Shown here: positions 26,903 to 57,954 of the stretch, piece by piece
How positions within the stretch are numbered: position 1 is the stretch's first letter
Layout: each line of letters opens with the position of its first letter
Assembly (NCBI GenBank): GCA_963785235.1
Contig: CAWAUM010000001.1
Coordinates: 512,001-576,000, forward strand
Reading direction: 5' to 3'
Length of the DNA: 64,000 nt
From: an uncultured delta proteobacterium
GTDB taxonomy: Bacteria > Desulfobacterota > Desulfomonilia > UBA1062
Position numbers and translations under genes: made by a program
The notes under the pieces: generated by a model
The model's input: the letters and a program-made list of their open reading frames with translations, nothing else
Databases searched by the model: none
Told to the model about the DNA's origin: nothing

Positions 26903-26961
26903 GGGTGTAGTGACCTGACGACAGGTCGCCGCAGGACAAAAGGATGGTCGGGCCGCCATCC
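26903..26961 (+). promoter_or_regulatory. nhaA-I-like (Li+/Na+-sensing) riboswitch aptamer, copy A
   Basis: GGGTG, stem GTGACCTG/CAGGTCGC, CAGG, A-rich linker, GGATGG-TCGGGCCG-CCATCC; matches my recall of the nhaA-I consensus (GGGUG...CAGG...UGGUCGGGCCGCC); 5' UTR position. Confidence 0.75.
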
Positions 26962-30172: not shown

Positions 30173-30204
30173 GAAAGCCGCCATCCGATTCAACGGAAGG
30201 CGGC
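30173..30204 (-). terminator. Putative riboswitch-controlled terminator overlapping the aptamer 3' strand
   Basis: Minus strand GCCGCCTTCCG-TTGAAT-CGGATGGCGGC-TTTC; the left arm is part of the aptamer; U-tract is short. Confidence 0.55.
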
Positions 30205-30240
30205 CCGACCATCTAAATCCTCCGGCATTAAACCGGACCC
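30196..30240 (-). promoter_or_regulatory. nhaA-I-like (Li+/Na+-sensing) riboswitch aptamer, copy B
   Basis: Minus strand GGGT-CCGG-TTTAATG-CCGG-AGG-ATTTA-GATGGTCGGGCCGCC-TTC; shares GATGGTCGGGCCGCC (15 nt) with copy A; TATAAT 12 nt upstream. Confidence 0.72.
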
Positions 30241-49762: not shown

Positions 49763-50473
49763 TTGCCAGGGGAGATGATGAAGCTGATGACTCACGTCAT
49801 TCCATATAGGATATATTCAGGATTCCGAATAGGGATTCTCTGTATCGTGGTGTCCCTCTTGCCGGCCAGGGTATTCTCATGGGAGCCAACCCCTTTTGAA
49901 ATTCAGGATACTGCGAAGCATGGCTTGCCCGGGTTTATCAGGTCCCTGCCTGAAGACCAAGTCAAATCATACGGATTTTCGACCAAGAGTGAAGCCGCAC
50001 GCACAACATTAAATGGAGGCATAAGGGTTTACACGATCAAACCCCATGTCCTGTTCAGTTATAAGAAGGGCATGGATGTCACCAGGATGATAACCCCGAC
50101 AAGCATGTGGATCTTCCCTGTTCTGGAAGGGGGAAGATCGAAGTCTTTGCTCACGGTTGATCGAATGCACGGAAAATGGGAGGCAGTTGCCTTTGGGGGT
50201 TCCGGGTTGGCAAGCCAACTGGAGGAAGTAGAGTTGAGATGGCCTTCTTCGAAGGGGTATGACCTTACCTTCGTGAGGGTTTTTCAGGCTAAATCCGACT
50301 TAGTATTCATCGCAAAAGGCAAAACAGTCATGATTGCACCCCTGGAATCGGCAGTCGTTGGTTTACAGTTGCACGCCAATGCAGGCCGTTATGGGGATAA
50401 GGTGTATGCTCCTTATGAAATATTGCCCAAGATGATACCTGTTGTCCGCCAGAACCTCCAGGCTCAAGAGTGA
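49763..50473 (+). CDS. Hypothetical exported protein upstream of the cysteine protease
   Basis: 236-aa ORF with hydrophobic signal-like segment; start uncertain (49775-49787 likely). Confidence 0.7.
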   Translation: MPGEMMKLMTHVIPYRIYSGFRIGILCIVVSLLPARVFSWEPTPFEIQDTAKHGLPGFIRSLPEDQVKSYGFSTKSEAARTTLNGGIRVYTIKPHVLFSYKKGMDVTRMITPTSMWIFPVLEGGRSKSLLTVDRMHGKWEAVAFGGSGLASQLEEVELRWPSSKGYDLTFVRVFQAKSDLVFIAKGKTVMIAPLESAVVGLQLHANAGRYGDKVYAPYEILPKMIPVVRQNLQAQE

Positions 50474-53400
50474 TTCTTTTGTGAGCGTAAGTCATAGTTC
50501 AACAGTAGCAATGGGATTTCTTATGATTAGGATACACGGGATGCTGCGAGGATTTCTTCACATAATCATAGCGTTTTTCTTGCTCTCCCAGAGCGCCATA
50601 TGCAATGCAGCCATCCTGCCTGTCCCGCTCGTTTCACAGGAGAAGACACACTGGTGCTGGGATGCGGGTAGTCAGGCCATACTTGCCTATTACGGGGTCA
50701 GCGTTTCCCAGTGCGAGATCGCCGATTTTGCGCGGATCCAGAATAACTGGGGATATAGCGACTGCTGTCTTTACCCGGATAGTTATGGCTGCAACAATGA
50801 GAATAGTATTTCCGGCAGCCGGGGCAGTACCTGCGGAGTATTGTCACATTGGGGTCTGAGAAACGCCTGGAGGGACTATCCATTATCTCAATCCACGGTA
50901 TCATCCGAGATAAGTTCGAGAAGACCTTTCGGGATTGCCTGGCGATGGAATAGCGGTGGGGGCCATTTTCTCGTGGGTCGCGGCATTGAAGGCAACAAGG
51001 TGCATTATCTGGATCCCTGGCCGGGAAATGGTTTTCAATCAGCCTCCTATGAGTGGGTGGCAGGGAGTGAAGATCATACGTGGATTGAGAGCATCCAGCT
51101 GATAACCCCTGGCCCTGAATGGGTCCCGCTGAACCCGTTGCCTCAGGGAACAGCGATCAGTCTCAGGGCCGTGTGGGGCGCTTCCGGCAGCAATATCTTC
51201 GTGGTTGGAGACAACGGCACGATCCTGCGCTACAACGGCAGCGTGTGGGTCCGCATGACCAGCGGCACTGCCAATGACCTCAATGGCGTATGGGGAAGTG
51301 CGGGCAATGATGTCTATGCTGTCGGTACGAATGGCACGATCCTGCACTACAACGGCAGCACGTGGAACACCATGACCAGCAATACCCCTCACTATCTGAA
51401 GGGGGTATGGGGCACAACGGGTGCAGACGTTTTTGTTGTGGGAGATAACGGCACGATCCTGCACTATAACGGAAGCTCATGGAGCCCCATGAACAGCACC
51501 ACCAGCCTCGAATTATCAGGAATATGGGGCAGTGCGGCCGATGATGTCTATGTTGCCGGAGATCAAGGTCTGATAATGCGCTACAACGGCAGCACGTGGA
51601 ACATCGTGACAGGGGGCAGTTCAGCAGGATTCCTTGAGAGCATATGGGGAAGCTCGGCCGGAGATATCTTTGCTGTGGGAGAGGCCGGAACGATCCTTCA
51701 CTTTAACGGCAGTGCGTGGAGCAGTGTGCCGAACCCGCTCACCGGGAGTCTGACAGGGCTCCGGGGGATATGGGGCAGCTCCGGCAGCTTTGTATTTGCC
51801 GTGGGAGATGAAGGTACAATCCTTCACTACAACGGCAGTTCCTGGGTTAGCATGACGAGTGGAACCGATAAAATGCTGTGGGGTGTGTGGGGCAGTCCGG
51901 CACTTGATGTCTTTGCCGCAGGGGATGAAGGAACGGTCCGGCGTTATTCAGGTCCCCTCGTTTCTGATTTCACCGCTGAACCGAGAAGTGGTTCGCTGCC
52001 TCTGGTTGTGAGTTTCTCCGACAGGTCCACAGGGGCCATCACATCCTGGTTATGGAACTTCGGAGACGGCACGACGAGCACATCCATGAATCCGACTCAT
52101 ACCTACACCAGGGCAGGGACATACACGCCCAGCCTCACCATTGCCGGACCGGACGGAACGAATACCAACACAAAGACGGCCTACATTTCCGTGTTGAATA
52201 CGGCAATATCATGTTCCCCTGTGACCCTTGCTTTAACCTGTCTTCCAGGATACAACGCACCGGGCCAAACCGTACAGGTCTGGAACTCAGGGGATGGAAC
52301 GATCAATTACACACTATCAGCTGATCAGTCCTGGATCTCCTTCTCAAGTCCAGGTGGGTCTTCAGCCGGGGCATCAGATAAAAAGTCTGTTACAGTTCAT
52401 TTTACCACATCGGCCCTTGCCCAGGGAAGCTATTCGGCCACCATCACCATCAGTGCGCCGGAGGCTGCAAATGCCCCCGTACAGATCCCGGTGCGCCTCA
52501 CGGTTCTTTCTCCGACTATAGCTTTCATTCCGGGGTCGCTTACCAATTCCTGCTGGCAAGGGTACAATGCACCCACCCAGACTTTTCAGGTCTGGAACTC
52601 AGGAGGAGGGACAATCAATTATTCCCTATCCGCCGATCAGACATGGCTCACCTGTCAACCTTCGAACGCAAGCTCCACTTCGACAGGAGGCGGCAGCGGG
52701 CATAGCACCATCAGGGTTAATTATGCAGCCTCAGGTCTTGTTCCCGGTAGTTACCCGGCCAACATCACTATCAGTGCGCCCGGCGCCATGAATACCCCAC
52801 GCATCATACCCGTAAGCTTAAAGGTGAATGCCCCTGTGTCCCCTTCATCCCCGGTTATTTCACAGAGCATACCAGCAAGTATTTCGGTAACCTGCGCAAA
52901 GGGTGCAAATGCATCAAGCCAGTCTTTTGATATCTGGAACTCAGGCGGCGGGTCGCTGGACTTTACTCTCTATGGGGATGTGCCATGGCTCTCACTCACT
53001 CCATCACATGGGACCTCTACGGGGGGGCATAATACAATAATTGTCGGTTTTACAAACTCAAGTCTTCCAGCAGGGACTTATTCCGCAACCATTACCGTCA
53101 GTGCCCCAATGGCTTCTAACAGCCCTCAGGTCATTCCTGTAAACCTGAAGGTGAGCGATCAAGAGGTACTTGGAAAGCCGACCCTTTTCATCGAACCCGG
53201 ATCAATCGCGATCACCTGTAAACGAGGTACGGATGCCAACGATCAAACCTTCCAGGTATGGAATTCGGGGAATGGAATAGTAAACTATTCCGTTTCCGAT
53301 ACTGCTGATTGGCTCTCCTGTACACCACAAGGGAGTACTATTTCAGGTTATCGCAGCACTATTACGGTCATCTTCAAGACATCCAATCTCTCCCCAGGGG

Positions 53401-53648
53401 AATATGACGAGATCATTACCATTGCTTCAACAGATTCAGCTGTGATGAATAGTCCCCAAAAAATCCCTGTTCATCTATCCGTGAAAGGGGGCGGAGGAGG
53501 CGGCAGCGGCTGCTTTATCTCTTCTACGACAGCTGCTGTTCCTGGGGCTCGAGTACTATCATTCATTGTTATGTTTGTGATGGTTATCGGAACCAGTATT
53601 TATCGTTCTTGCAGGGTTTCCCATGAGCACCCTATGACCCGGCGCTAA
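50442..53648 (+). CDS. Multidomain surface protein: papain-like (C39/C70-like) cysteine protease + 7-blade VWGS beta-propeller + PKD + four BACON-like domains + CFI-box C-terminal anchor
   Basis: Q....WCW.A (Cys), GGHF (His), YLDPWP (Asp); seven L.GVWGS...VFAVG..GTILHYNG repeats; WNFGDG PKD; four F.VWNSG.G...WL repeats; GGGGGGSGCFIS-TM-basic tail; true start probably 50511-50541. Confidence 0.85.
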   Translation: MSARTSRLKSDSFVSVSHSSTVAMGFLMIRIHGMLRGFLHIIIAFFLLSQSAICNAAILPVPLVSQEKTHWCWDAGSQAILAYYGVSVSQCEIADFARIQNNWGYSDCCLYPDSYGCNNENSISGSRGSTCGVLSHWGLRNAWRDYPLSQSTVSSEISSRRPFGIAWRWNSGGGHFLVGRGIEGNKVHYLDPWPGNGFQSASYEWVAGSEDHTWIESIQLITPGPEWVPLNPLPQGTAISLRAVWGASGSNIFVVGDNGTILRYNGSVWVRMTSGTANDLNGVWGSAGNDVYAVGTNGTILHYNGSTWNTMTSNTPHYLKGVWGTTGADVFVVGDNGTILHYNGSSWSPMNSTTSLELSGIWGSAADDVYVAGDQGLIMRYNGSTWNIVTGGSSAGFLESIWGSSAGDIFAVGEAGTILHFNGSAWSSVPNPLTGSLTGLRGIWGSSGSFVFAVGDEGTILHYNGSSWVSMTSGTDKMLWGVWGSPALDVFAAGDEGTVRRYSGPLVSDFTAEPRSGSLPLVVSFSDRSTGAITSWLWNFGDGTTSTSMNPTHTYTRAGTYTPSLTIAGPDGTNTNTKTAYISVLNTAISCSPVTLALTCLPGYNAPGQTVQVWNSGDGTINYTLSADQSWISFSSPGGSSAGASDKKSVTVHFTTSALAQGSYSATITISAPEAANAPVQIPVRLTVLSPTIAFIPGSLTNSCWQGYNAPTQTFQVWNSGGGTINYSLSADQTWLTCQPSNASSTSTGGGSGHSTIRVNYAASGLVPGSYPANITISAPGAMNTPRIIPVSLKVNAPVSPSSPVISQSIPASISVTCAKGANASSQSFDIWNSGGGSLDFTLYGDVPWLSLTPSHGTSTGGHNTIIVGFTNSSLPAGTYSATITVSAPMASNSPQVIPVNLKVSDQEVLGKPTLFIEPGSIAITCKRGTDANDQTFQVWNSGNGIVNYSVSDTADWLSCTPQGSTISGYRSTITVIFKTSNLSPGEYDEIITIASTDSAVMNSPQKIPVHLSVKGGGGGGSGCFISSTTAAVPGARVLSFIVMFVMVIGTSIYRSCRVSHEHPMTRR

Positions 53649-53717: not shown

Positions 53718-54284
53718 CTACAGGGGATAGTTGTCTTCGAGTATCTCGATCTTTTTTACAAGGAACTGCCTTCCAATCTCCCCGGTGAGAAACACCTTTG
53801 AATTTTTAAAAGAGAGCTCTGATATGGTGAGTTCGGTCATGGAGAGCTTTGTAACAGGGAAAAATTTACGTGAGTTTAAATCAATAAGCTTCTTGATCTG
53901 TTTCTGAACCGTTCCATCAGCAGCAATCAGCTTGTAACGCTTGGATAAACCCCTGGCTATTGTATAACCTTTGTTCTCCGGATCTACGTAGTTACCGAAT
54001 TTAGTCTTAAGTTCGTCGGCATCTTTTTTTGTCATGACAATGATGCGGGCATCGAGGTATTTTATGGATTCAGGGAAAACAACCGGGTTTATCGTGAACA
54101 GGACAAAGGTATCTTCCACCGGCGCCATCTTGACGGCCTTTACGGAATGATCTTTTGTCGTAAGCGCTATCTCCTTACCCGTATCCTTAATATCCCCCCC
54201 CGACCTTGTTGACGAAGATGAGCATGCAGGAAGCACCAAGAGTAATACAAGGATAAAGAACAGAAAGCCCCGGATAGTCTTCAT
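53718..54284 (-). CDS. Hypothetical lipoprotein
   Basis: GAGGAGG RBS; lipobox LPAC followed by Ser-rich linker. Confidence 0.8.
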   Translation of the reverse strand: MKTIRGFLFFILVLLLVLPACSSSSTRSGGDIKDTGKEIALTTKDHSVKAVKMAPVEDTFVLFTINPVVFPESIKYLDARIIVMTKKDADELKTKFGNYVDPENKGYTIARGLSKRYKLIAADGTVQKQIKKLIDLNSRKFFPVTKLSMTELTISELSFKNSKVFLTGEIGRQFLVKKIEILEDNYPL

Positions 54285-54614
54285 TACCAGTCCTCCTCAA
54301 TAACGGTGTGGTGATTCTTTCCAAGAAGATTATACCTTGATAGTACAAGCTCATAATAAGCCCCATATCTTTAAGATACGACCAAGTTAATCCCCTTGAG
54401 TTTTCCGGCACAAGATATAGTGGGGGGTTTAAAAATTGTCAAGATAGTACTCAGGTGATCCAGGTGTATCCAGTTCCATCGACCGGTAAACAACCATGAA
54501 CGCCTAATCTGATGTATGGTGAAATATTCTTGTATGTTGTATAGATTTAGTGGCTATTACCACGGGACGACAGTTGAGAAAAACCACTGCCAGGGGGCTG
54601 ACGCATGAAGAAAC

Positions 54615-55304
54615 ATGATGTCCGTAATACTCCAGGAAAGGGTGTCCTGCCTCGGTGCTTGCATTATTCTGATTCTCTGTGTCTTCATCGGTTGTTCTTC
54701 GAGCGATTCAAACCAGAGGTATGGTACCTTTGTGGATAGCGCAGTTGAAGGCATTACGTTCAAGACCGAAACCATGAGTGGTGAGACTGGTGTATATGGA
54801 AGATTCCCTTTTGTTCCTGGAGAAACCGTGACCTTTTCCATCGGGGGCATCATTATCGGGGCCACGAAGGTAAAGCTTGTCATCACGCCGGTGGACCTTG
54901 TTACAGGGGCACTTGATGAGAAAGATCCCGCGGTGACCAACATCACCCGGTTCCTCATCACCCTCGATGAAGACAATAATCCTGATAACGGCATAACCAT
55001 AAGCCCTGCAGTCAGGACTGCTTTGGCCGGCTACTCAGTCAATTTTGCCCAGGACACTGCTCAGTTCGCTCAAGATGCCGAGGCGCTGGATGTGATGGAA
55101 ACCCTGAACGTTCTCTATAAAGGCGATACAGGGGAACGCATACTCTGTTCCGTGATGGACGCCCAGGAACACCTCGGAAATACTATAGAAGAGCTTGCAA
55201 AGAGTGGATACAATAAATCCGGCGGATCAAGCGGCAATATCGATTTCGGTGGAGGAGGCGGGTCAGGCGGAGGCGGAGGCGGATGCGGTGGGTGAGGCGA
55301 ATAG
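54615..55304 (+). CDS. Lipoprotein with Gly-rich C-terminal arm; candidate selenoprotein (CGG-UGA-GE-stop). Ends at 55295 if UGA is a stop
   Basis: Lipobox FIGC; G.FVDSAVEG..F, G.T...G.F....GE.VTF.IG, N..RFL.TLD.D.NPDNGI.I domain; GGGGGSGGGGGGCGG then TGA, two codons and TAG. Confidence 0.8.
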
Positions 55305-55308
55305 CCTA

Positions 55309-55326
55309 CATCATCGGTCGATGATG
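55309..55326 (+). promoter_or_regulatory. Candidate bacterial SECIS element
   Basis: CATCATC-GGTC-GATGATG hairpin starting 13 nt after the in-frame TGA; GGUC apical loop as in the E. coli fdhF SECIS; no U-tract follows it on either strand. Confidence 0.6.
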
Positions 55327-55347
55327 AAAAAACCTCCAATAAAAGCT

Positions 55348-55953
55348 TCACATGAACGGGTGAATGTGCGGAATAATCCAGATGCCTAGGTTTGCGAGCG
55401 CATGCACGATAAATGGTGCCCAGATATTCCTTCTCCATTCGTAAATAGAAGCAAACAGGATGCCGCCTGTGAGTTGGATTACTGAGATGTTGCCGTGCAG
55501 ACAGGAAAAGAGCAGAGATGTGAGGATAATGCACACGGATGCTCCCAGGCTTTCCCTCATCCATGCATAGAGCAGCCCCCTGAAAAAGAGCTCTTCCACA
55601 AAAGGCCCGATGAGACAGCCGATAAAGAAAAAGGCTACCCAGTGGTCAAGAGGCTGCTCTGAGAGAAGCTGACTCAGCAGCCCTTTTTCCATGAAGATCC
55701 GCGAAACAAGGTCTATGGCAAGAACACAAGCGCCAAAGACAGCAGCAATCCCGAGTCCAATGGCAAGCTCCTTGGAAATTGAGGCTGTCATCACGCCGCA
55801 GAGCCTGTATGAAAAAACAAGGATGACAGTCATCTCCACGAGCCTGGCCATAAGTGTGTAGATCAGCCCGTCAACAAGGATGTATCCCGACAACAGCCTG
55901 AACCCGGCTTCTACGAGACAAACCGCAAGAATGACTGCCAGACGCCTATCCAT
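55348..55953 (-). CDS. CPBP (CAAX/Abi) family intramembrane glutamic endopeptidase
   Basis: GPFVEELFFRG, FSCLH, HALAN motifs; multiple TM. Confidence 0.9.
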   Translation of the reverse strand: MDRRLAVILAVCLVEAGFRLLSGYILVDGLIYTLMARLVEMTVILVFSYRLCGVMTASISKELAIGLGIAAVFGACVLAIDLVSRIFMEKGLLSQLLSEQPLDHWVAFFFIGCLIGPFVEELFFRGLLYAWMRESLGASVCIILTSLLFSCLHGNISVIQLTGGILFASIYEWRRNIWAPFIVHALANLGIWIIPHIHPFM

Positions 55954-56082
55954 GGATATGTATATATAAGGGAAAATGGGAAGGCACAATGAAAGAAACT
56001 TGGCAACAGTCTAATAAAGGCATATCCGATATACAAACTTGTAAAATTGACGAGCATGGACAAGTGCGTCTATACTGGCACC

Positions 56083-57954
56083 ATGAAAAGGGTAGTCATC
56101 GGCACGGCAGGACATGTGGACCATGGCAAGACATCGCTTATCAAGGCGCTCACCGGTGTTGACTGTGACCGCCTCAAGGAAGAGAAAGAGCGTGGGCTTA
56201 CTATCGAGCTCGGCTTTGCCTCGCTCGTTCTCCCTTCAGGGGAGCGCGTAGGGGTGGTGGATGTGCCGGGGCATGTGCGTTTTATTAAGCACATGCTCTC
56301 AGGGGCCTCAGGCATTGATCTGGTGCTGCTGGTGATCGCCGCGGATGAGGGAGTGATGCCCCAGACAAAAGAGCATGTGCAGATCTGCGAGCTTCTGGGC
56401 ATCAAGCGCGGGGTCGTTGCCCTGACCAAAAAAGACATGGTGGATGAAGACCTGCTGGAGCTTGCCGTCTCTGATGTGCGGGATTATATCCAGGGCACCT
56501 TCCTTAAAGATGCACCAATTATCCCGGTAAGCTCCACGACGAAAGAAGGTCTGGATGAGCTCACCGCTGAGCTCGATGCCCAGGTAGCGCTGGTGCATGA
56601 GCGGCAATCAACAGGGATACCGGTGCTTCCTGTTGACCGCGTTTTCACCATCAAGGGGTTCGGCACCGTGGTGACCGGCACACTGAGCCGCGGTACATTC
56701 TCTCATGAACAGGAAGTCGAGGTTTTGCCCAGCCGCAAGGCTGCCAGGATCCGCAATCTTCAGGTCCATGATGAAGATGTTGATATTGCATTTGCCGGCA
56801 TGCGCACCGCAGTCAACCTCCAGGGCATGGGCAACGAGGAGATAGCCCGGGGTGAATGGGTCGTTCCGGCAGGGGTCTTTGATGCCACCCGTTTGCTTGA
56901 TGCGAAGCTCAACCTTCTGAGGAAGCCGGGCAGGGGCGGAGTCAGGCTCTATATCGGTACGGCAGAGGTTATGGGGGACATGAGCCTGCACAAGGTAGAC
57001 GGCCAGGACATTGGAAGGATAAGGCTCCAGCAACCGATTGTTGCCTCGCACGGCGACAGGTTCATCCTGCGTGCCATATCCCCTGCGGCCACCATTGGTG
57101 GAGGTATGGTGCTCAATCCTCATCCGGCCAGGCGGTTTTCAGAAGAGGTGATCCGCGATCTCTTAAGCGATGACCCTTCAAGGCTCATCATCGGTCTTGC
57201 AAAGGATGCCGGAATGCAGGGCATCTCACGAAGGGTTATCCTCTCTGTGTTCCCCGAAGGGGCGTCCAAGTGGGATAAGCTCATACAAAGCCTGCTCTCA
57301 GCCGGCGAGATCATCAAGTTCGATACAACAGGAGAGCTCTTTGTTCATGCCTTTTACCAGGCCAGGCTCAGGCAGGTTCTTGTATCGCGCGTCCAGGAAT
57401 ATCATGCGGCAAACCCATCATCGCCAGGTGTATCAAAGGAACATCTAAGGATGTCTGTTCAGGGCGGCGTAGAGCAGAAACTGTTCCACAAGGTCTTGCA
57501 GGATCTTGTGAAAAGAGGTGATCTGGAAGAGTCGGGGCCTACGATATCAGCCGCCGGGTTTTCTGCAACCATGGCTGCCGACCGGACCGAGCTTGGTGAA
57601 AAAATAACCAAGATTCTTGAGCAGGCCGGATTCGAGCCGCCAAAGATATCCGAGCTTTCTGAAAGGCTCCATGTCACCAGTAAAAATATCACGGAAATTC
57701 TCGGTTTTCTCAGTCGTGACCACAAGGTCGTCAAGATAAAAGACGATATGTATCTGTCCAGCCAACATGAAGAGACTCTCAAGAAACACGTAGGCGAGTT
57801 CATCCTCAAGAATCAGTCCATGGGGCCTGCTGACATGAAGACCGTCATGGGCTTGTCTCGGAAATATGCAATTCCCTATTTTGAGTACCTGGATCGTATT
57901 CGGTTCACCATGCGTGTGGGGGATGTGCGTAAGCTGGTAATTACATCGAAGTAA
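56083..57954 (+). CDS. selB: Selenocysteine-specific translation elongation factor
   Basis: [63 protein letters not shown]-terminal winged helix SRKYAIP..EYLD...T.R.GD.R. Confidence 0.97.

Follow-up and report, generated by a model that had tools for sequence, protein, structure and literature searches.

A candidate lipoprotein selenoprotein with a selenocysteine-tipped glycine-rich arm in an uncultured delta proteobacterium

Several described systems resemble in part a gene located at 54615..55304 on the forward strand of a 64,000-nucleotide stretch of DNA from an uncultured delta proteobacterium (GenBank assembly GCA_963785235.1, contig CAWAUM010000001.1, positions 512,001 to 576,000; "the window" below means this whole stretch), which probably encodes an exported lipoprotein with selenocysteine (Sec, U) near its C-terminus. 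Animal thioredoxin reductase has a flexible C-terminal Gly-Cys-Sec-Gly arm, in which an adjacent Cys/Sec pair is followed by Gly; the candidate differs from it in being bacterial and exported, in having no flavoprotein domain and in using a bacterial Sec insertion sequence (SECIS), and its Cys is separated from Sec by Gly, on either side, or is absent. In the fdhF-type SECIS of E. coli, as here, a hairpin with a GGUC(U) loop lies just past the UGA, whereas the candidate hairpin is in the 3' untranslated region (3' UTR) behind a second stop and has a 7-bp A/U-rich stem with no bulge. The UXX-star proteins (NF041114, NF041211) share with the candidate the order Sec, two residues, stop and a SECIS hairpin 3' of the stop, but they are glutaredoxin-like proteins of about 70 residues, whereas the candidate, at 229 residues, is a lipoprotein whose body is unrelated to theirs and whose Gly arm is long and disordered. 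The two UXX-star models gave no match to the translated-through protein up to an E-value of 10, and in the genome they match C12:86380-86580 and C1:52981-53184 (both outside the window) and not the candidate gene. The SslE/AcfD metalloproteases, also lipoproteins, share only a beta-sandwich module of about 55 residues with the candidate, which has no peptidase domain.

The idea of a thiol or selenol tip is shared with SaoC (NF040734), a small and mostly lipoprotein-type exported protein ending in CC, according to the accessible part of its description (10.1101/2022.07.06.499078); its C-terminal motif is entered as CU in the table of a 2026 review, in the accessible part of that article (PMC13188914). 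The candidate differs from SaoC and KCU-star (NF033934) in matching neither at NCBIfam and in its motif, which is C-G-U-G-x or U-G-C after a Gly arm, and it differs from SaoC also in being found without the SAO gene neighborhood. The same review tabulates 119 prokaryotic selenoprotein families; the candidate matches no Pfam or NCBIfam model attached to them, and nothing similar appears in the accessible table (PMC13188914). A term search of the accessible BSepDB text did not return the word "lipoprotein" (PMC13326102). Our literature search found no description of the family; the supplementary candidate lists of the review, of BSepDB and of a study of groundwater metagenome-assembled genomes might include it. 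We class the candidate as a new family of selenoproteins, known in kind but unusual in architecture. An earlier annotation made from the letters of the window (the sequence-only reading) had called that architecture unrecognised, which holds in that the family is new and has to be tempered in that UXX-star, KCU-star and the CC/CU-COOH terminus of SaoC are partial precedents.

The UGA codon and the hairpin behind it

The open reading frame (ORF) at 54615..55295 (+) encodes 226 amino acids (aa) with the C-terminal tail ...GGGGGSGGGGGGCGG, and terminates in GGGGGGCGG-TGA-GGC-GAA-TAG. With the UGA translated, the gene extends over 54615..55304 (+) and comprises 229 codons (226 plus U227-G228-E229) before the TAG. 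The Cys224 codon TGC (55284..55286, +), which would encode the Sec partner in the window's orthologue, is separated from the TAG by GGT, GGG, TGA, GGC and GAA, the TGA at 55293..55295 (+) being the predicted Sec codon (U227) and the TAG at 55302..55304 (+) the true stop. A perfect 7-bp hairpin, CATCATC-GGTC-GATGATG (55309-55326, +), starts 13 nt past the TGA and lies entirely 3' of the TAG, and its loop G and U occupy positions 25 and 26 counted from the U of the UGA. The sequence-only reading had placed the ORF end, the C-G-G-U codons, the two residues before the TAG, the hairpin, its 13-nt spacing and its loop G-U exactly there. From its sequence, covariation and spacing, we take this hairpin (stem CAUCAUC/GAUGAUG, loop GGUC) as the putative SECIS. 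The 61-nt stretch around it has a folding energy of -18.3 kcal/mol (z = -2.76), and Rfam at its gathering threshold gave no family at the site. The hairpin had also been described as not being a terminator, which agrees with the absence of a U-tract (the + strand has A6 directly after the hairpin, and on the - strand T6 precedes the stem) and with a scan for intrinsic terminators, sought as a G+C-rich hairpin plus U-tract, that made no call at 55309-55326 on either strand.

The bases concerned were compared with contigs from public sequencing runs. Both the TGA and the hairpin are covered by contigs from two independent runs, X2 and X3, for which no difference is listed at 55293-55326, and nearby differences in the run contigs (e.g. 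55307 T>G) agree with the bases of relatives. We regard the chance that the TGA is an assembly or sequencing artefact as close to nil: a possible indel of 1 nt near the start of this gene would speak for it, while the X2 and X3 contigs speak against it, as do the 19 distinct gene ends described below, which come from many independent assemblies and all have this TGA and hairpin. The indel concerns the N-terminus. The contig of a further run, X1, has one base fewer at 54632, which brings an upstream ATG at 54605 into frame; read from this ATG, the window gives the N-terminus of homologue P0001 for its first ten residues and then shifts, and the frame restored by the X1 base yields an N-terminus (MKKHDVRN…) like that of P0001. 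At the 5' end of the gene (54605-54640), the window sequence may therefore contain an inserted nucleotide, or the difference may be a real one between strains. The start used here, ATG 54615, is that of the window sequence as given, and the signal peptide is retained with either start.

To compare gene ends across homologues, we collected DNA from genomes of the same class, from a set with a single genome for each species, from metagenome contigs and from a second order reached via locus L048, and ran tblastn with the body domain of the protein over the collected loci, yielding 151 distinct gene ends; the closest records have names that indicate the class Desulfomonilia. A Gly-rich tail was found in 19 of the 151, including L206, which was assigned to this group by hand (its tail is Asp/Gly-rich and ends in TGA; before this assignment the TGA count of the others was 39 of 133). 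In all 19 the first stop is TGA, and behind it is a hairpin with 7 bp or more and a loop G-U located 24-27 nt after the U. No hairpin of that kind was found in the 132 other gene ends, the first stops of which are TAA (55), TAG (39) or TGA (38). The sequence-only reading had proposed to look among homologues for a conserved UGA plus hairpin: both are present in 19 of 19 Gly-tail ends, none of which ends in TAA or TAG without the hairpin. The second stop of the tail forms, 1-3 codons past the UGA, is TAG, TAA or TGA, and all 18 aligned sequences (18 of 18) have GGN as the codon directly after the UGA.

The position of Cys varies among these forms. It precedes the TGA in 12 of the 19 (C-G-U-G-x or C-G-G-U-G-E) and follows it in four, namely L021 and L207 (U-G-C), L022 (U-G-G-C) and L048 (U-G-C-G), such that 16 of the 19 forms have a Cys 1-2 Gly from Sec on one side or the other; L205, L206 and L209 have U-G or U-G-G and lack a nearby Cys. 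The downstream Cys codon occurs exactly in forms without an upstream Cys. Because this in-frame codon lies past the UGA in exactly those genes that lack the upstream one, the UGA appears to be translated, and the shift of the Cys across the UGA, which judging by the sequences only makes sense if the codon is read through, is the strongest single argument for readthrough. At the protein level, 27 of the 27 close metagenomic homologues that we fetched end in ...GGCG or ...GCGG and are thus cut at the same point, and the Desulfonema ishimotonii homologue P0036 (U-G-C form), named hypothetical protein DENIS_0519 in a source and matched by the protein encoded at L207 over the part compared, ends at the UGA as well; standard annotation does stop at this codon, as had been anticipated.

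Covariation was assessed on a TGA-anchored MAFFT alignment of 18 sequences (A3). In the 7-bp helix, 97.6% of cells are paired and six of the seven pairs show changes on both sides; the observed values were reached by 0 of 500 shuffles, and shifting the partner columns abolishes the signal. The stems found among the tail forms are CAUCAUC, CGUCAUC, CAUCGUC, GAUCAUC, CUCAUCA, AUCAUCG and GCUAUUG, with the loops GGUC, GGGU(C), GUU, GUA and GUC. The hairpin is conserved as a structure, not as a sequence. A covariance model built from the 18 tails (R1) matches the window site, with a score of 68.6 bits, and nothing else in the genome (the runner-up has 17.5 bits); the element is single-copy, and other SECIS elements were not detected by this model.

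The machinery for Sec insertion is complete in the assembly, with tRNA-Sec (77.3 bits), selA (520.7 bits), selB with all its Pfam domains, and selD, which has an in-frame TGA at a G-A-G-U-A-C-K site; selA, tRNA-Sec and selD, whose presence the sequence-only reading had suggested confirming, are therefore all there. Among other tail-bearing genomes, selA was found in 9 of 10. Several formate dehydrogenase-like genes of the assembly also have an in-frame TGA, and their Sec sites can be set beside the candidate: of six listed, four share GCC-GGUCU-GGC (G-U at 23-24), one more merely duplicates the sequence of one of these and the sixth (mopB7) has no such loop, and an extra in-frame TGA in a short formate dehydrogenase-family match (mopB6) is of uncertain status. 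Compared with the formate dehydrogenase-like G-U at 23-24, the candidate has G-U at 25-26, its spacing being 1-3 nt longer. The selD hairpin has a GUU loop with G-U at 24-25. The UXX-star glutaredoxin-like selenoprotein at C12:86380-86580 (-) (NF041114, 96.9 bits) has two in-frame TGAs, and its second Sec site reads GGS-UGA-GGG-GUG-UAG, followed by the hairpin CCCAU-CGGGU-AUGGG with G-U at 26-27. The layout of the candidate (U-x-x-stop, with the hairpin 3' of the stop) is that of this UXX-star member of the same genome.

We then estimated the genomic background by scanning 5847 long-ORF ends for hairpins that combine a stem of at least 7 bp, a loop of 3-5 nt and G-U at 22-28. Such a hairpin follows 9 of 3072 TGA ends compared with 2 of 2775 TAA/TAG ends, and the nine include four formate dehydrogenase-like Sec codons and the candidate. 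The combination of TGA and hairpin at the candidate exceeds chance. Separately, four other TGA ends with a SECIS-like hairpin (at least 7 bp, G-U 23-27), at C1:769379 (-), C2:172583 (-), C5:616848 (-) and C7:177571 (+), are possible further selenoprotein genes, or chance occurrences.

Several observations weigh against the selenoprotein interpretation and what we build on it. The extension is only 1-3 residues long, with coding evidence past the UGA consisting of the invariant Gly codon and of Cys codons in 4 of 19 forms, and among 120 + 143 representatives there is a single candidate for replacement of Sec by Cys, P0054 (...VVCGC; seen as protein only, with a tail that is not Gly-rich). With its 7 bp the hairpin is short, and it lacks a bulge. 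Nor are the 19 gene ends independent of one another: 11 belong to one close clade with a near-identical hairpin, and the covariation depends on about seven diverged sequences. One tail-bearing genome, G033 (96% complete), gave no selA match, with selB and tRNA-Sec present. The functional interpretation proposed below is by analogy only, and the fold searches were unspecific.

We weighed the alternative that the UGA is an ordinary stop, with a protein ending in ...CGG and the hairpin acting as a 3'-UTR element such as an mRNA stabiliser, an atypical terminator or a protein-binding site. The very short extension would suit it, as would the position of the hairpin between convergent genes in the near clade, and termination at the UGA surely happens part of the time. 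It leaves unexplained, however, why TGA comes first in 19 of 19 Gly-tail ends and in 38 of 132 others, why an in-frame Cys codon occurs past the TGA exactly where the upstream Cys is missing, and why the TGA spacing and the loop G-U match the genome's own SECIS type, and a terminator is further opposed by the lack of a U-tract and of any terminator call. We consider an ordinary stop improbable.

SelB-dependent insertion of Sec at U227 is predicted with high confidence. The claim of the sequence-only reading that this is an unannotated selenoprotein with a SECIS is supported by a TGA that never varies, a hairpin that covaries and keeps its spacing, the downstream Cys codons and the complete Sec machinery. 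In the mechanism that we propose, the UGA at 55293-55295 would be decoded as Sec by SelB-GTP-Sec-tRNA(Sec), with SelB recruited by the 7-bp GGUC-loop hairpin (55309-55326) located wholly in the 3' UTR and with the selB product acting in trans. Competing termination at the UGA would give a selenium-free product three residues shorter, and selenium supply would set the ratio of the two forms.

The lipoprotein, its arm and what the arm may bind

The signal peptide (54615..54695, +) terminates in a lipobox, …CVFIG-C27-SSSDS, identified by eye against the lipobox consensus; C27, with its codon at 54693-54695, is invariant in 65 of 65 aligned homologues. The protein is expected to be a bacterial lipoprotein with a predicted lipid anchor at Cys27. 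An AlphaFold2 model built with 65 homologues has a mean predicted local distance difference test score (pLDDT) of 83.3 and consists of a beta-sandwich (residues 35-85), a helical domain (92-196) and a disordered tail (204-226, pLDDT <50). The globular body thus covers about residues 35-200 (54717..55214, +), and a flexible Gly/Ser-rich arm, as seen in the sequence, residues 202-223 (55218..55283, +). One Cys of the body, C178, is conserved in at least 90% of alignment A1. The mature protein would accordingly present, beyond the Cys27 lipid anchor and the beta-sandwich and helical body, an arm of some 25 residues, Gly-rich and disordered, with C-G-G-U-G-E at its end. We found no hydrophobic stretch past the tail in any of the three frames that could form a C-terminal sorting signal of the myxosortase/CPBP type.

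To look for relatives of the body, we searched family and structure databases. A Pfam scan of the protein matched no family, and NCBIfam gave only a weak SslE/AcfD match at residues 42-88 (NF037974, 17.3 bits for a cut-off of 800). This relationship was confirmed when the PDB sequences were searched with a profile: residues 35-88 matched positions 275-331 of 23px_A, in the N-terminal repeat of SslE/AcfD (E-value 1.8e-7). Foldseek against the PDB returned nothing at an E-value of 0.001 or below (best 0.05 or worse), a wide VIA-align search returned generic transthyretin-like sandwiches (best Z 4.1), and the ESM Atlas returned only clusters named "hypothetical protein". Since the fold searches gave nothing specific, we did not assign a function from the fold.

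The body domain, for which there is no Pfam model, has 8281 cluster representatives at an E-value of 0.001 or below and 1747 at 1e-30. In most cases it is the N-terminal module in larger lipoproteins, and it is frequent, repeated or N-terminal, in very large proteins (up to 6968 aa). What follows it differs between subfamilies. Among the best 120 cluster representatives, the tail is a Gly run with C-G(G) in 32, a Gly run only in 2, C-G-C in 1, Met-rich in 2 and Trp-rich (WGSLQWGS...) in 41, the remainder being long forms (36) and others (6). Among 45 short representatives of the profile search, inspected by eye, 12 have Gly/Asp/Ser tails ending in GG(G) or CG and 9 have Met-rich tails. Two relatives, P0037 and P0052, are fused to MopE-type Cu-binding repeats (PF11617).

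The explanation that best fits these data, and which we consider probable from the sequences, is that 54615..55304 (+) encodes an exported lipoprotein selenoprotein with a Sec-tipped arm. In the envelope, the arm would act as a tethered, highly nucleophilic selenium ligand (with or without sulfur) and capture sulfane sulfur or a soft metal or metalloid. We advance this capture function tentatively, giving it somewhat less than an even chance, by analogy with sister subfamilies, because they combine the same body with Met/His-rich or CxC tails or with MopE-type fusions; the orthologues that have Sec and lack Cys favour it too. More speculatively, and on balance doubtfully, the large lipoprotein family might carry interchangeable "fishing-line" tails (Met/His-rich, Trp-rich, CxC or Sec-tipped Gly-rich), of which the Sec branch would pass the caught metal, metalloid or sulfane sulfur to envelope machinery, with selenium supply toggling between armed and unarmed isoforms.

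The presence of a Cys 1-2 Gly from Sec in 16 of 19 forms could also be read differently for the same selenoprotein: its C-terminal Cys/Sec pair would be a redox-active selenenylsulfide on a swinging arm, comparable to the C-terminal arm of animal thioredoxin reductase, and would carry electrons from one to the other of an envelope partner and its substrate. Most known bacterial selenoproteins have a CxxU or UxxC redox motif, according to the accessible part of the review (PMC13188914), and the conserved body Cys C178 could be an extra partner. The three forms with Sec and no nearby Cys (L205, L206, L209) do not fit such a shuttle, nor does a body in which Pfam, Foldseek and VIA-align found no thioredoxin-like or flavoprotein fold, and there is no conserved neighboring redox partner gene. 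The shuttle is possible and, we think, rather unlikely. An obligate selenenylsulfide redox pair is disfavoured because three orthologues have Sec without any Cys; from these Cys-less forms it follows that the selenol, and not a Cys/Sec pair, is the constant feature. The C-x-x-U motif that the sequence-only reading had pointed out is present in the window and does not extend to the family at large: most orthologues have C-G-U, four have the reversed order and three have no Cys, so the Cys/Sec pair is not obligatory.

If a Sec-tipped lipoprotein is what this gene encodes, it would add to the prokaryotic selenoproteome a family missed by homology-based pipelines. Sec would here be located outside a thioredoxin-like active site, on an exported lipoprotein whose disordered arm bears it at the tip and whose Cys partner is movable or absent, and the gene might even, though we would not count on it, provide the first selenol displayed alone on an intrinsically disordered tether outside the cytoplasm. 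A bacterial SECIS acting wholly from the 3' UTR would be a clean natural example of this arrangement, relevant to selenoprotein engineering. The locus also draws attention to a large domain family that lacks annotation and whose modular tails probably bind ligands, and the existence of a cultured carrier, Desulfonema ishimotonii, makes direct tests possible.

Neighboring genes and other elements

The Sec-specific elongation factor gene selB (56047..57954, +; Pfam GTP_EFTU, SelB-wing_2, SelB-wing_3 and Beta-barrel_SelB) lies about 750 nt downstream, with a single gene between it and the lipoprotein gene. This is a convergent CPBP/Rce1-like gene (55348..55989, -; PF02517, E-value 8.3e-18) that ends 22 nt past the hairpin. 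The order 188-aa lipoprotein, selenoprotein, CPBP and selB is found only in the near clade. At L021, L022, L023, L048 and L205-L209, no selB match was found around the gene in the DNA analysed, and the gene and its hairpin persist. The proximity of selB noted by the sequence-only reading is real in the window and in the near clade, and as evidence it is lost at these more distant loci; because the neighborhood is kept only in the near clade, we do not link selB and CPBP to the gene beyond shared descent. Elsewhere the gene adjoins GspH-type pseudopilin genes at L021 (2575-3183) and L023 (319-1352) and a response regulator at L207, and at L209 (415-3326) it is flanked by DotU and TssG, two genes of type VI secretion.

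In E. coli, a SECIS-like element controls the selAB operon. By analogy, the hairpin could serve not in decoding but in the control of the nearby selB, as a regulatory site or a decoy that binds SelB, in keeping with the distance of about 750 nt and with the lipoprotein-CPBP-selB order of the near clade. The intervening convergent gene, however, excludes a transcript shared by hairpin and selB, and the loci listed above keep gene and hairpin without a selB match, the hairpin tracking the UGA instead; a decoy is thus very improbable, and we retain the hairpin as the putative decoding signal for U227.

As the CPBP gene is a protease gene, we also considered processing of the tail by its product, in a CAAX-like or sortase-type manner. 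This was dropped, the pairing of the two genes being confined to the near clade and the tail having no transmembrane segment. The CPBP protease (55348-55989) has weak MrtJ/MrtS matches of 35 bits, below the cut-offs. Two genes upstream of the candidate, a 1068-aa protein (50442-53648, +) has C39/C70-like peptidase, PKD and BACON domains, and its C-terminus consists of GGGGGGSGC-FISS, a hydrophobic helix and a basic cluster, an arrangement resembling C-terminal sorting signals of the Cys type; its sortase could be the CPBP protease. Ends with a G-run and GC[FL]I[ES]T are also found at C2:7413-8774, C8:32034-33002 and C12:265388-269632, two of which continue to a helix and basic cluster, and in the one at C12 the scanned frame has nothing beyond the motif. 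Divergent from the candidate, the 188-aa lipoprotein-like gene (53718-54284, -) belongs to no Pfam or NCBIfam family and is syntenic in the near clade, at 56-76% identity. Further away in the window, nhaA-I RNA (RF03057, gathering score 37) has matches at 26903-26961 (+), with 50.8 bits, and at 30195-30240 (-), with 37.0 bits.

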